A stretch of 6,564 bases of DNA from Escherichia coli (lineage in GTDB: Bacteria > Pseudomonadota > Gammaproteobacteria > Enterobacterales > Enterobacteriaceae): NCBI RefSeq assembly GCF_003334385.1, contig NZ_QOWN01000076.1. One strand, written 5' to 3'. Below the pieces are notes generated by a model, which was not told the origin of the DNA, did not search any database, and saw only the letters and a list, made by a program, of their open reading frames with translations. Shown here piece by piece: positions 243 to 6,461 of the stretch (the stretch's first letter is position 1; every line of letters starts with the position of its first letter). The translations under genes were made by a program, and so were the position numbers.

Positions 243-1727
243 ATGTCATTCGGTCAGCCTTGTGATGAGTTTCCCCTGAGTTCGCTGCCTCCACTCATTC
301 GTGATGCCGTTATTGAAGCTCAGCAAATTACGCAGGCTCCCCTTGGGCTTGTGGCAGCGTCTGCCCTGGGCGCTGTTTCACTTGTCTGCCAGAATCTGAT
401 TGATGTCTGCAGACTGAATACACTGCGGGGGCCGGTCTCTCTTTTTTTCCTGACGCTTGCCGAGTCCGGAGAACGAAAAACCGCAGTGGACAAATTATTA
501 ATGAAGCCCCTGTACCAGCAGGAGATGCAGTTATATTCCAGATACAAAAGTGAACTGGCTGTCTGGAAAAACAAGGAAGAGCTTTTAAAGGCTCAGAAAA
601 AAGCATTGTTGTCAAAACTGAATAAAGAACTCCGCAAAGGCGCGGATGAGTCAGAAACCCTCAGACAACTGGAAGTACTTCAGAAAAACAGTGCGGAAGA
701 ACCTGTGAGGTATAAATTCATTTTTAATGATGCCACGACTGCGGCAATTAAGAATCAGCTTTGTGGTAAATGGCGTTCAGTTGGTATTATGTCAGATGAA
801 GCCGGTATTATATTTGATGGATATACCCTGTCTGAGTTGCCTTTTATTAACAAAATGTGGGATGGCTCTGTATTGTCTGTGGACAGAAAGAATGAACCCG
901 AACAGATGATTGAAAATGCCAGAATGACGTTATCCCTCATGGTGCAACCCGGTCTTTTTGACCGATATATGGAGCGAAAAGGTTCTGTTGCCAGGGACAG
1001 TGGTTTTCTTGCCCGTTGTCTTATCAGTAAACCTGCAACCACGCAGGGGAAACGCTTTATTAACGGAGCTGTGATTCCGGGAGGATCATTAACGGCATTT
1101 CATGAACGATTAATGGAACTGGCCAGAGGCAGTATTGAAAAATCCAGTGAGGATGAACGGTATTGTCTGCATTTTTCGCCTGAAGCGCAAAAAATATTTA
1201 TTGAGCACTATAATGTTCTGGAGCAGGATTTATCCCCTTCCGGACCCTTAAGCCCGTTTCGGGGACATGTTTCAAAAAAAACAGAAAACATTGCAAGAAT
1301 TGCAGCGTTATTTCAGTATTTCAGCTATGGTGAAGGGAAAATCTCTGCCGATATCATGACGTCTGCTGTCGTAATAAGTTCGTGGTACACAGATGAATAT
1401 AAAAAATTATTTGCGTTACCTGATGAATCTGAACTGCAGCAGAAGGACGCCGAGGAGCTGTTCGACTGGCTCATTGAGGAGTGCCGCGGAGAATGCCCGC
1501 CCCGTGTCAGGAAAAATTATATTCTCCAGTGTGGCCCGGGCCGGTTCAGAAACAGGAAAAAACTGAACGCATTGCTGAACATTCTTGAATCTCAGTTCAG
1601 GCTTTCTGTCGTGCCGGAAGGAAAAACCATGTATGTTCTGCTTCCCCAGATAGCCAGTTTAAAGTTGTCTGATGTCTCTGGTATTTTTACCTCGGGTTAT
1701 CACTACAATAAGCTGAGAGCGAAGTAA
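243..1727 (+). CDS. DUF3987-domain protein, YfjI-like (family associated with replication/primase modules of integrative elements and satellites)
   Basis: Long ORF 174..1727 in the track. TTG at 174 has no Shine-Dalgarno; ATG at 243 is preceded by GAGG (234..237) with a 5-nt spacer, so 243 is the preferred start (494 aa). The N-terminus reads EFPLSSLPPLIRDAVIEAQQITQAPLGLVAASALGAVSL, which matches my recollection of the DUF3987 N-terminal signature (F-P-x-x-x-L-P-x-x-L-R-D ... Q-x-P ... small-residue helix). No overlapping ORF is comparably long. Family assignment is from memory, not a search. Confidence 0.7.
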   Translation: MSFGQPCDEFPLSSLPPLIRDAVIEAQQITQAPLGLVAASALGAVSLVCQNLIDVCRLNTLRGPVSLFFLTLAESGERKTAVDKLLMKPLYQQEMQLYSRYKSELAVWKNKEELLKAQKKALLSKLNKELRKGADESETLRQLEVLQKNSAEEPVRYKFIFNDATTAAIKNQLCGKWRSVGIMSDEAGIIFDGYTLSELPFINKMWDGSVLSVDRKNEPEQMIENARMTLSLMVQPGLFDRYMERKGSVARDSGFLARCLISKPATTQGKRFINGAVIPGGSLTAFHERLMELARGSIEKSSEDERYCLHFSPEAQKIFIEHYNVLEQDLSPSGPLSPFRGHVSKKTENIARIAALFQYFSYGEGKISADIMTSAVVISSWYTDEYKKLFALPDESELQQKDAEELFDWLIEECRGECPPRVRKNYILQCGPGRFRNRKKLNALLNILESQFRLSVVPEGKTMYVLLPQIASLKLSDVSGIFTSGYHYNKLRAK

Positions 1728-1786
1728 CCGGTGAGCAGTTTTTCTCCATTATGCTTCAGACTTAGATGATTGATTATTATGGGGAT

Positions 1787-1826
1787 TTCATCACCGATAT
1801 TCAGATGTATGAATATCGGTGATGAA
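1787..1826. repeat. Perfect 17-bp inverted repeat (TTCATCACCGATATTCA / TGAATATCGGTGATGAA) with 6-nt spacer, in the convergent intergenic region
   Basis: Read directly: arms 1787..1803 and 1810..1826 are exact reverse complements, spacer GATGTA. It sits 60 nt after the stop of the 243..1727 gene. No T-run follows on either strand, so it is not a canonical intrinsic terminator. A third copy of the half-site GGTGATGAA occurs at 1850..1858. Confidence 0.85.
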
Positions 1827-2048
1827 CTAAAGCTCAGGAGCTGCATGGTGGTGATGAATCAACAGGCATATAACTGATACCCGCCGGTCAGAAGTTCCAG
1901 CCTGCGACTTTCCTGTCTGCGTGCCCGCAGTCCGGCGTTCAGGTGCAGCGTGTGACAGAACGCACGGAGAGCGAAACGGCAGGCAGACAGGCCGTTCAGT
2001 CAGCCCTGGCACCCTGCCCGGATACCAGCTTCCCTGAAACAACTGGCA

Positions 2049-2651
2049 TCAGGTGCGCTTATCGTCAACCGTTGTGCGGTATGACAGGAGCACGTACTGA
2101 TCCATCAGATCCGTCAGTGCTGCGCTCTGCTTCTGACGGTTGATGATCCATTCCTCCAGCTCTTTTTCTGATTTCCGTTTCAGATTCTCCGTCCAGTCGT
2201 CAAGGCAGTTTCCGGTCATTAAATCAAGCCAGCAAAGCCAGACTAGTTTGAGGCGCAACTCCGTGCCACCAAACTGACGGAAGAGGCTGATCAGTTTATT
2301 TGCCAGAGAACGCTGCCTCAGACGTTCACATTCAGACAGGAGAATGCCTTCCAGCATCGGATGATGAACCAGCAGATGTTCACTGGTGCATAAATTCACT
2401 ATCAGATCATCATCCAGGGGCGGTGTGGCCCGTTTGTCAGGGCCATAAATCAGCCGGTGCAGGCTCTGGGGTACGATGGCAATCTCCGGTTTTTCACCAT
2501 TGAATGACACCCAACCGGGCGTCAGATTATGGAAGTAGTAGATATTCGGATGACACACGCCCCAGGATACGGCGTGCCGGGTGAAGCCGGTCAGCCATTT
2601 CTGGTAGCTTTCGTGGAGCCATTCGTAGCGGGTCTGATACTGTTGTTTCAT
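2049..2651 (-). CDS. Hypothetical protein (about 200 aa), unrecognised family, co-directional and downstream of alpA
   Basis: ORF 2049..2666 on the minus strand. The annotated first codon is GTG; GAGG (complement of 2661..2664) lies 9 nt upstream of the ATG at 2651 and 3 nt upstream of the ATG at 2657, so I prefer 2651 (2657 possible). It starts 94 nt downstream of the alpA stop on the same strand, suggesting an operon. The protein has mixed composition with no low-complexity runs (e.g. GWVSFNGEKPEIAIVPQSLHRLIYGPDKR, LEEWIINRQKQSAALTDLMDQ). I do not recognise the family. Confidence 0.55.
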   Translation of the reverse strand: MKQQYQTRYEWLHESYQKWLTGFTRHAVSWGVCHPNIYYFHNLTPGWVSFNGEKPEIAIVPQSLHRLIYGPDKRATPPLDDDLIVNLCTSEHLLVHHPMLEGILLSECERLRQRSLANKLISLFRQFGGTELRLKLVWLCWLDLMTGNCLDDWTENLKRKSEKELEEWIINRQKQSAALTDLMDQYVLLSYRTTVDDKRT

Positions 2652-2745: not shown

Positions 2746-2952
2746 TTACGGACGGGACTGTGCAATACGCGCCTGCAGCCAGGCTTCCACTTCACTTTTC
2801 AGCCAGCGGGAGCTGCGCTCCATTTTGATGGGGGCAGGAAAGCCCCCATCTTTGATGAGTTTGTAAAACCACTTATCGGTTAAGCCGGTAAGTTGAGTGA
2901 TAAACGCCATGTCGACCATCTGGTCATCCATCAGCGAAACAGGGGTAGCCAT
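2746..2952 (-). CDS. alpA: AlpA-family (phage/integrative-element) transcriptional regulator / excisionase-like HTH protein, 68 aa
   Basis: The C-terminal 68 aa of ORF 2746..3186 read MATPVSLMDDQMVDMAFITQLTGLTDKWFYKLIKDGGFPAPIKMERSSRWLKSEVEAWLQARIAQSRP. The ATG at 2950..2952 (complement) is preceded by GGAGG (complement of about 2960..2964). The small size, helix-turn-helix-like core and the motif W-x-x-S-E-V-E-A-W-L resemble the E. coli AlpA C-terminus (W-I-E-A-E-I-D-E-W-L) as I recall it. The 78-codon upstream extension is Pro/Arg/Ser-rich and not protein-like. Confidence 0.75.
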   Translation of the reverse strand: MATPVSLMDDQMVDMAFITQLTGLTDKWFYKLIKDGGFPAPIKMERSSRWLKSEVEAWLQARIAQSRP

Positions 2953-3431: not shown

Positions 3432-4155
3432 CTGATGCGTAAAATCAGCAGTGACACGCCAGCTCCCCCTGTGCCCATTCCTGTATAAGACATGAACTGA
3501 GCGTATTAATGCTCCTGCTCTGAGACTGAGCCGGTGAGTGAGGGGCTGAGAAATCCCTCTTGACACAGCTCTAAACCAGAAATACTTCCCCGGTTGTTGC
3601 GGTGCGTCCGGATCCCCGATAACGGAACACTAAGGCTGTATTGCGGGACACCGGGTAAGTGGCAGCCTGTAATGTGTTCTGTCAACGCCAGAAAAAATGA
3701 TTTTTCACACGCGTTATAGACTCACTCCTGTGGACCTGGAAGCCCGTAACTCTGCGGTTGCCCACCGACTGACGGAACTGACCGCAAACTTTACGATCGT
3801 GTTCCTGCTTCCTTCTGGTCACCTGAACTTTTAGCCAGCGCTACGATAAGTCCGGTGTTATCTGCACCGGAGGACCGGGAACATTAAGCGGTATAGCGAC
3901 AACAAAGAATTCGAAATCAAAAGGGAATGGTGCCGGAGGCGTGGGCGGTAATAGGCTGATTTTCAGGTATTACCGGCTTACAACGTGTGGTTGATATTGA
4001 GGGGCTGTGAGTTTCGCGTATTTGTCAGAAACCCAGATGAGTTTTCCTTTATGGGACGAAATAAGGCAGCGGCAATACCTGGAAAAATTTAATATGGTAT
4101 GAAGGAGAACCTGTCGGTTACGCTTAATATACACGGTACACTGTCAGCTCAGGGG

Positions 4156-5395: not shown

Positions 5396-5803
5396 ATGAC
5401 TATGTACGCAAAATCCTTTATCGCTCTTGATGGCAACGGACGTCTGACGGGCGCCCGTACTGCACAGGCCGCACCTTATGCTAACTACACCTGCCACTTG
5501 TGTGGCAGTGCACTCAGATACCATCCGCAATACGAAACTGAACTTCCCTGGTTTGAACACACTGACGACAGGCTGACAGAGCACGGTCAACAGTGCCCTT
5601 ATGTCAGGCCGGAGCGCAGAGAAATACAGTTGATTAAACGTCTGCAGCAATTCGTACCGGATGCCTTACCCGTGGTGCGTAAAGCCAGCTGGCACTGCAG
5701 ACAATGTCACCACGATTATTATGGGGAGCAGTACTGCACACACTGCCAGACCGGAGGATTCAGTATTCCCCGGACAACTCAGGAGGAAATATGCGAATTC
5801 TGA
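5396..5803 (+). CDS. Cys-rich putative zinc-binding protein, paralog A (135 aa), unrecognised family
   Basis: ORF 5396..5803. GAGG (5389..5392) precedes the ATG at 5396 by 3 nt and the ATG at 5402 by 9 nt, so the start is one of the two. It contains CHLCG ... PWFEH ... W-H-C-R-Q-C-H-H-D-Y-Y-G-E-Q-Y-C-T-H-C-Q-T-G, and aligns along its length with the downstream protein. Confidence 0.6.
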   Translation: MTMYAKSFIALDGNGRLTGARTAQAAPYANYTCHLCGSALRYHPQYETELPWFEHTDDRLTEHGQQCPYVRPERREIQLIKRLQQFVPDALPVVRKASWHCRQCHHDYYGEQYCTHCQTGGFSIPRTTQEEICEF

Positions 5804-6225: not shown

Positions 6226-6461
6226 TGGTTGCCTCCGGAGCAGTTTGCGGTGATGCCTTTCCCGGGAATGGATTGCCGGTGCGGGGACTGTGGAGCTTAA
6301 TTCCGGTGTTGGTGGCCTTTCCGTTGATTTTATGCCAACAGCCCCCTGTGACTGACAGGCTGCCTCGTCATTCCATTCGTATCTCCAGTAACAGGGGGTT
6401 GTATTGTATTTTATTGTGCCGGTTCAGGTGTGCGTTTCCCGGCGCGTCTGCACCGGCTTAA
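6225..6461 (+). CDS. Possible small protein (78 aa) whose ATG overlaps the paralog B stop (TAATG); low confidence
   Basis: ATG at 6225..6227 overlaps TAA at 6223..6225, with GAGG (6216..6219) 5 nt upstream. The protein is Pro/Gly/Leu/Arg-rich with one hydrophobic stretch (LWSLIPVLVAFPLIL) and could equally be a GC-driven artefact. Confidence 0.2.
   Translation: MVASGAVCGDAFPGNGLPVRGLWSLIPVLVAFPLILCQQPPVTDRLPRHSIRISSNRGLYCILLCRFRCAFPGASAPA

Follow-up and report, generated by a model that had tools for sequence, protein, structure and literature searches.

A conserved, unannotated stem-loop between convergent genes of a common Escherichia coli chromosomal island

What is a long inverted repeat doing between the 3' ends of two genes that point towards each other in an Escherichia coli chromosomal island? 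The question was raised by a sequence-only reading of the 6,564-nucleotide stretch of E. coli DNA analysed here at its full length (contig NZ_QOWN01000076.1 of assembly GCF_003334385.1; hereafter the window), which described an exact palindrome with a third half-site nearby and offered four alternatives for it: a site for a dimeric DNA-binding protein, a bidirectional Rho-independent-like stop for convergent transcripts, a replication origin or nick site, and a recombination site. The window is part of a chromosomal island of the CP4-57/CP4-44 type, and the genes that frame the palindrome are the following.

GTPase gene: upstream, outside the window, minus strand.
yfjI (DUF3987): 243–1727, plus strand; matches PHROG 2373 "DNA helicase" (E 5.5e-82) and carries the hairpin in its 3' UTR.
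200-aa hypothetical gene: 2049–2651, minus strand; convergent with yfjI, second gene of the AlpA-like operon.
AlpA-like HTH gene: 2746–2952, minus strand; matches excisionase/regulator PHROGs.
Inovirus-Gp2-family gene: beyond the AlpA-like gene, plus strand.
Two zinc-ribbon genes: beyond the AlpA-like gene, plus strand.

Past the GTPase gene lie Ag43, antirestriction and CbtA/YeeU genes. The palindrome begins 60 nt past the yfjI stop codon, inside the 321-bp gap that separates yfjI from the convergent 200-aa coding sequence; its placement between convergent genes was correct, with the addition that the relic of another gene, described below, intervenes. A small ORF running across the hairpin on the minus strand (1703–1846) was rejected as a gene, its frame being broken by indels in the related locus L115. 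The yfjI clade with 81–100% identity is effectively confined to E. coli, other relatives being ~50–55% identical; no YfjI relatives were found in species-representative genomes with YfjI peptide patterns, a PDB sequence search with YfjI gave nothing meaningful, and NCBIfam had no match for six island proteins. Elsewhere in the window, positions 1–80 belong to a multicopy element (found in 3089 genomes, at a median of 3 and up to 23 places, plasmids included), and the best island matches to the window all begin at position 77; we take these first ~80 nt to be the right end of IS186, inserted upstream of yfjI. The region ~3685–3932 matches, at 79% identity, the part of the paralogous CFT073 island around hha (hemolysin expression modulator), a gene that is intact, frameshifted or truncated in different paralogues, and at 6338–6402 a 17-nt, 88% inverted repeat followed by TGTATTGTATTTTATTG resembles an ordinary intrinsic terminator after the zinc-ribbon genes.

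The repeat itself and the motif beside it consist of the following parts.

GATTATT motif: 1772–1778, plus strand; 9–25 nt upstream of the hairpin and conserved in all variants.
Left arm, TTCATCACCGATATTCA: 1787–1803, strandless; its outer 10 nt are the conserved stem base, with homologous arms in loci L002, L003, L004 and L115.
Spacer or loop, GATGTA: 1804–1809, strandless; 6 nt, not self-complementary.
Right arm, TGAATATCGGTGATGAA: 1810–1826, strandless; complementary to the left arm at 17/17 positions.

The arms have a G+C content of 6/17 (35%). The 40-bp exact palindrome of the sequence-only reading therefore needs rewording: its 17-bp arms are real, but as the central 6 nt do not pair with themselves the element is an interrupted repeat spanning 40 nt. 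That such a repeat is very unlikely by chance was borne out when we searched 400 dinucleotide shuffles of the window for perfect arms with a loop of 3–12 nt, as the longest repeat in any shuffle was 12 bp, versus 17 bp in the real window, where the runner-up is 11 bp. We also noted an exact 14-nt direct repeat, GATTATTATGGGGA, at 1772–1785 just 5' of the palindrome and again at 5714–5727, at the start of a zinc-ribbon gene; ~0.08 direct repeats of this length are expected by chance, and the GATTATT portion is also conserved 5' of the hairpin in variants V2–V4 (defined below).

A query of 61 nt centred on the palindrome matched 1181 of 5426 complete E. coli genomes (none in 4245), all matches being chromosomal and in the island context. 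This query counts each palindromic locus twice, once on each strand, so that the median of two places per genome is one locus; the maximum is three loci. Three "plasmid" matches are to records of 1.4–4.9 Mb, presumably chromosomal sequence filed as plasmids. No further copies of the arms, with up to 3 mismatches, occur in 30 kb of island, no match to the palindrome query was found in a phage collection, and a loose scan for the core motif over 1 Mb of loci gave only chance-type matches elsewhere. A REP-like dispersed repeat, found widely in the host genome independently of the island, is the observation that the sequence-only reading had said would count against it; we could rule this out, as there are 1–3 island-bound loci per genome and no second copy in the 30 kb. 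Viral contigs contained one identical locus plus eight of K-12 type with a non-homologous downstream region, and a metagenome scan anchored on an invariant 23-nt block within yfjI recovered 99 loci, nearly all of variant V1 or V3, plus V1b and a few singleton variants. A literature search found no published reports of the palindrome sequence and nothing relevant for YfjI.

The hairpin dominates the predicted folds of both strands of the window. In a 60-nt context the RNA folds at -28.1 (plus strand) and -25.4 (minus strand) kcal/mol, with z of about -7.5, so that the RNA folding suggested earlier as a check returns, in silico, a strong hairpin on either strand; in a 173-nt context the z-scores are -4.4 and -4.2 for the two strands, and for single-stranded DNA they are -7.4 and -8.0. 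Beside the repeat there is no T-run on either strand of the window, and V2–V4 are likewise without a U-run; the tails past the stem read CTAAAGCTC on the plus strand and ATCCCCATAA on the minus strand. A consensus scan found no canonical terminator at the site or anywhere else in the 321-bp gap, in agreement with the earlier view that this is not a typical intrinsic terminator. There was also no Rfam match to the hairpin at E≤1, and no promoter-like site in 1500–2300 or for either transcription unit.

Paralogous islands share a common order of GTPase gene, yfjI, convergent 190- or 200-aa gene, AlpA-like gene and Gp2-family gene, and in all of those compared a hairpin lies 40–60 nt past the yfjI stop. 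The search for the same palindrome in related elements that had been proposed thus yielded hairpins at the same position, with compensatory changes and diverged loops, which we group as follows.

V1, the window, with strains A12 and NCTC9113 as further carriers: TTCATCACCGATATTCA-GATGTA-TGAATATCGGTGATGAA.
V1b, L115: differs from V1 in the outer stem, by 3 substitutions and 1 indel.
V2, L002 and L014: TTCGTCACCA...TGGTGACGGA.
V3, L003 and CFT073, ST131 and Nissle, in 786 genomes: CCGTCACCC...GGGTGACGG.
V4, L004 and L019: TCCGTCATCCTC...GAGGGTGACGGA.

Stable RNA hairpins are predicted on both strands in every variant; the folding energies prefer the plus strand in V4, the minus strand in V3 and neither strand in V1 and V2. 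A comparison of V1 with V3 gives 92% identity in yfjI as far as window position 1652 and 87% in the AlpA region; BLAST no longer aligns the segment 1653–1850, whose sole conserved islands are the stem base, the GATTATT motif and the surroundings of an old stop codon. The arms are separated by 6 unpaired nt in V1 vs 11–15 in V2–V4, and the conserved cores, measured from start to start, lie 27 bp apart in V1 vs 21–22 bp in V2–V4, distances that differ by roughly half a turn of the helix. At the stem base the core TCACC/GGTGA does not change across the variants; in the singleton variants L021, L022 and L055 a stem pair is broken, and the hairpin of L115 has diverged about as fast as its flanks.

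Several of these loci have further peculiarities. The V4 loci (L004, also L019, L080 and L085) are recombinants with a V3-like yfjI end and hairpin and window-like downstream sequence, the junction (L004 3990–4030) lying at a CCGG microhomology with the relic stop region lost; L004 also has, at 4054–4143, several copies of CCTGTCTGCC/GGCAGACAGG, among them a 9-bp hairpin followed by TGTTTTCC. An IS66-family element sits inside the V2 hairpin of L020 (1440–1570), between the left arm and the loop, and in another strain an IS3-family element directly follows the yfjI stop (L016, 3985–4047). K-12-type YfjI loci (protein 50% identical; L006–L013) have a conserved GATAGGTAATATATA ~90–100 nt past the yfjI stop, and in L007 (4491–4519) and L013 this motif forms a perfect 13-bp palindrome, TAGGTAATATATA-TTG-TATATATTACCTA, of a sequence unrelated to that of the window's palindrome.

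To compare the arms we registered the outer 10 bp of the stem by hand with a dummy GAAA loop, MAFFT having misplaced the V1 arms. Over five sequences, 96% of the cells of this stem base hold standard pairs, four pairs never vary, and in three of the ten both partners have changed (UA/UG/CG, AU/GC and GC/AU/CG). Against 0.235 ± 0.06 in shuffles, 0/500 of which reached it, the covariation score is 0.47; in registers slid by 1–3 columns only 24–60% of the cells pair. The remaining one-sided changes are transitions that give G.U-type pairs, three as read on the plus strand and one on the minus strand, and one pair in V1b (L115) became A.A via changes on both sides. We read this as a modest but genuine signal, taken from a hand-registered alignment of 4–5 independent lineages, suggesting that pairing has been kept and not only sequence. 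The acting strand cannot be called from it, because the wobbles favour the plus strand 3:1 while the fold energies favour different strands in different variants. Symmetric changes in the two arms are also expected of a palindrome that works at the DNA level, and the invariant TCACC/GGTGA could reflect sequence-specific recognition and not pairing alone.

The same comparison bears on how the long stem of the window came about. The inner 8 bp of V1 occupy what is loop in V2–V4; the extension of its right arm continues with the ...GTATGA common to the other loops, and that of its left arm is the exact complement, which suggests a template-switch extension of an older stem. The long perfect V1 stem thus probably arose by extension of an ancestral stem of 9–12 bp into the loop, e.g., by template-switch correction. 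Quasi-palindrome correction of this kind is established in E. coli (Ripley; Lovett), and it brings with it an explanation of the whole element that we consider unlikely: a neutral quasi-palindrome would have persisted, and here been perfected, through template-switching between the arms during replication, so that covariation is mimicked without a selected function. The perfect 17-bp stem of V1, with its complementary extensions into former loop, is what such a process would leave, the arms of L115 diverge at a rate similar to that of the flanks, and the IS insertions in or beside the hairpin (L020, L016) had no obvious consequence. On the other hand, the hairpin base is among the just three conserved islands that remain in an otherwise unalignable segment, the hairpin is kept in all lineages, including recombinants with replaced downstream sequence (L004), and G.U-type wobble intermediates persist instead of being "corrected".

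Downstream of the arms lie two features that determine how the third half-site is to be read.

Third copy of GGTGATGAA: 1850–1858, plus strand; starts 24 nt past the right arm, without a conserved counterpart in the other variants.
Relic 3' end of a displaced 190-aa-type allele: 1859–1955, minus strand; ~30 codons, with a TGA stop at 1859–1861.

The sequence-only reading was right that a third exact copy of this 9-mer lies 24 nt downstream at 1850–1858, and the chance of meeting such an exact 9-mer a third time within ±60 nt is ~1e-3. Its role as a half-site fared less well: V2–V4 read GTGTTATGAA or GCGTTATGAA at this position, with no match to their own arms; in L115 the arms are mutated and the third copy is unchanged, i.e., it does not co-vary with them; and in L081 a 22-nt deletion between short CAGGA repeats (window 1834–1855) removes it, leaving the hairpin intact. 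Next to it, window 1851–1955 is 73–77% identical in nucleotide sequence to the 3' end of the 190-aa gene of other islands, the translation of the relic ends in ARRQESRRLELLTGGYQLYAC versus ARKREKRELELMIDEYLLYAC in the 190-aa gene (E 1e-6), and the TGA at 1859–1861 on the minus strand, which adjoins the third 9-mer, is homologous to the stop of that gene. The third 9-mer is, on these alignments, best treated as sequence incidental to the relic, and we do not count it towards a three-site element. Homology between the live 200-aa gene and the 190-aa gene extends over their full length (35% identity); together with the relic end it points to an allelic replacement that left the last ~30 codons of the old gene beside the hairpin. 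The segment between the conserved yfjI and alpA, 1653–2680, is hypervariable, and the hairpin marks the edge of this recombination-hot segment, in which one allele of the gene downstream of alpA is exchanged for another. In a GC-rich stretch past the relic there is also a 14-bp, 93% inverted repeat (1912–1925 / 1978–1991, CCTGTCTGCGTGCC / GGCAGGCAGACAGG).

The change of spacing among the variants counts against a single dimeric protein that reads B-form half-sites. An operator, at which a dimeric regulator (the AlpA-like HTH protein or another island protein) would bind B-form half-sites, e.g., as a transcriptional roadblock, would account for the perfect dyad symmetry and for a conserved half-site core, (C/T)C(A/G)TCACC, and an HTH protein is encoded nearby. 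However, the 27 bp between cores in V1 become 21–22 bp in V2–V4, the site is flanked by the 3' ends of the two genes, the surrounding 1500–2300 holding no promoter-like site, and the third "half-site" is not conserved. In addition, the AlpA protein WP_001095912 accompanies V2 in some islands and V3 in others, and window-like AlpA is found alongside V1 as well as V4; the hairpin variant therefore does not track the AlpA allele, which counts against an AlpA-like operator. We accordingly regard the proposed dimeric-protein site as disfavoured, and an operator of any island regulator as very improbable. The suggested recombination site is not supported, spacer length not being conserved among the variants: a tyrosine-recombinase core site (dif/cer/lox-like) was rejected on the 6-nt spacer of V1 versus the 11–15 unpaired nt of V2–V4. 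The footprint of an inversion was also rejected, as there is no partner repeat upstream of yfjI.

A structure formed by the DNA itself, as a cruciform or single-strand hairpin, could be an origin, a single-strand initiation site or a nick site for YfjI and/or the Gp2-family protein. Satellite and island origins often adjoin a rep gene, and here the hairpin lies directly downstream (60 nt) of yfjI, with its helicase match (PHROG 2373, E 5.5e-82), in an island that also has a Gp2-family gene; the stem-base core TCACC/GGTGA is invariant, the centre of V1 is AT-rich, and the single-stranded DNA folds are strong (z of about -7.4 to -8). TCACC, present in the hairpin core, is also found in the P4 alpha iteron, TGTTCACC; this match, like the usual place of satellite and island origins, we treat as a lead only. 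Against this, there is no iteron array, the site consisting of the two arms and one non-conserved 9-mer; the arm occurs only here in the 30 kb of island, and the 9-mer is not enriched elsewhere beyond chance matches with 1 mismatch. A marked AT-rich unwinding region is not evident (GC is 38–39% around the hairpin vs 39–45% in neighbouring 100-nt windows, and the AT-rich hairpin centre does not extend into a longer AT tract). K-12-type YfjI loci have unrelated sequence downstream (direct-repeat families are absent downstream of yfjI in the six such loci scanned, where two weak repeats of two copies each were all that appeared), phage and plasmid DNA show no homology, and no YfjI relative of solved structure was identified by sequence. 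An iteron-type origin, as one form of the origin or nick site that had been suggested, is therefore not supported for want of an array, and we consider a DNA-level site improbable. The more specific form of it, in which the TCACC/GGTGA hairpin is a structured DNA site used by YfjI and/or the Gp2-family protein to start replication of the excised island, is to our mind distinctly improbable. It would nevertheless be the sole reading that makes the finding matter much more, as these very common "cryptic" E. coli islands would then be autonomous replicons with a new kind of minimal origin.

On balance the palindrome is most likely an ordinary hairpin that marks the 3' end which two converging transcription units share, in an island common in E. 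coli. More specifically, we favour an RNA stem-loop common to both units, which would serve as a bidirectional 3'-end, pause or stabiliser element of a non-canonical type, a proposal about which our confidence is evenly balanced. The hairpin is kept at the same relative position in 4–5 lineages (V1, V1b in L115, V2 in L002, V3 in L003/CFT073 and V4 in L004), and lies close to the end of both coding regions, 60 nt past the yfjI stop and, in the ancestral layout, ~30 nt past the stop of the convergent gene (1859). Varying loop length and core spacing (27 vs 21–22 bp) fit a structure read from its stem base and not a fixed B-form site, and as there is no canonical terminator in the 321-bp gap some other 3'-end device is to be expected there. 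The bidirectional stop for convergent transcripts is thus the best-fitting of the four alternatives first offered, given the same-position hairpins with their compensatory changes. In such a scheme the stem-loop, in the gap where the plus-strand yfjI transcript meets the minus-strand transcript of the AlpA-like operon, would act on one or both RNAs: it may hold up polymerases approaching from the two sides, so that these halt or run into each other at a fixed point without a U-tract, and, remaining at the RNA 3' end, may block 3' exonucleases and so stabilise the upstream message. Transcription from both sides, pausing, termination and stabilisation are steps that we infer.

If this is correct, the hairpin is one more unannotated 3'-end hairpin without a U-tract between convergent genes, and its main use would be as clean natural material on which to test bidirectional termination by collision or pausing, with four variants whose stems range from 9 to 17 bp and whose loops differ. 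It would also aid the annotation of a module present in more than one third of complete E. coli genomes (V1 and V3 counted).

The element is an unannotated stem-loop between convergent genes, which is a known kind, and comparison with characterized systems helps to place it. With the iteron origins beside rep or helicase genes (P4 ori/crr and the ori of SaPI/PICI) it shares a helicase-like neighbour gene and the TCACC core; it differs from them in being a single inverted pair, with no array and no clear AT-rich unwinding element, and YfjI is a DUF3987 protein, unlike the P4-alpha type. Like a canonical intrinsic terminator it is a stable stem-loop shortly 3' of a stop codon; it differs in having no U-tract on either strand in any variant and an AT-rich stem. 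A closer counterpart is offered by SEnd-seq, which revealed prevalent bidirectional terminators between convergent E. coli genes that are unlike intrinsic or Rho-dependent ones, and that depend on their encoded hairpin for the positioning of polymerase collisions (Wang et al., bioRxiv 10.1101/2022.10.23.513370); the class was defined by Ju et al. 2019, as Wang et al. describe it (bioRxiv 10.1101/2022.10.23.513370). Our element likewise lies in a convergent-gene gap, is predicted to fold into a hairpin on either strand and does not have the features that define an intrinsic terminator. Its stem exceeds the usual length and AT content (17 bp, 35% G+C), and a 190-nt stretch with a gene relic separates it from the live convergent gene. 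Terminators of the SEnd-seq class are characterized by transcript 3' ends from the two strands that coincide or overlap, independently of Rho; ours would be a candidate member. The other counterpart is the REP elements, whose hairpins without a U-tract are partial terminators as well as mRNA stabilisers and also occur between convergent genes (bioRxiv 10.64898/2026.03.23.713779). The hairpin described here belongs to no dispersed family (1–3 island-bound loci per genome) and has neither a REP consensus nor an Rfam match; what it has in common with REPs is that it is extragenic and palindromic, forms a predicted hairpin with no U-tract and lies in a 3' UTR, and the dual effect that we propose for it is the same.
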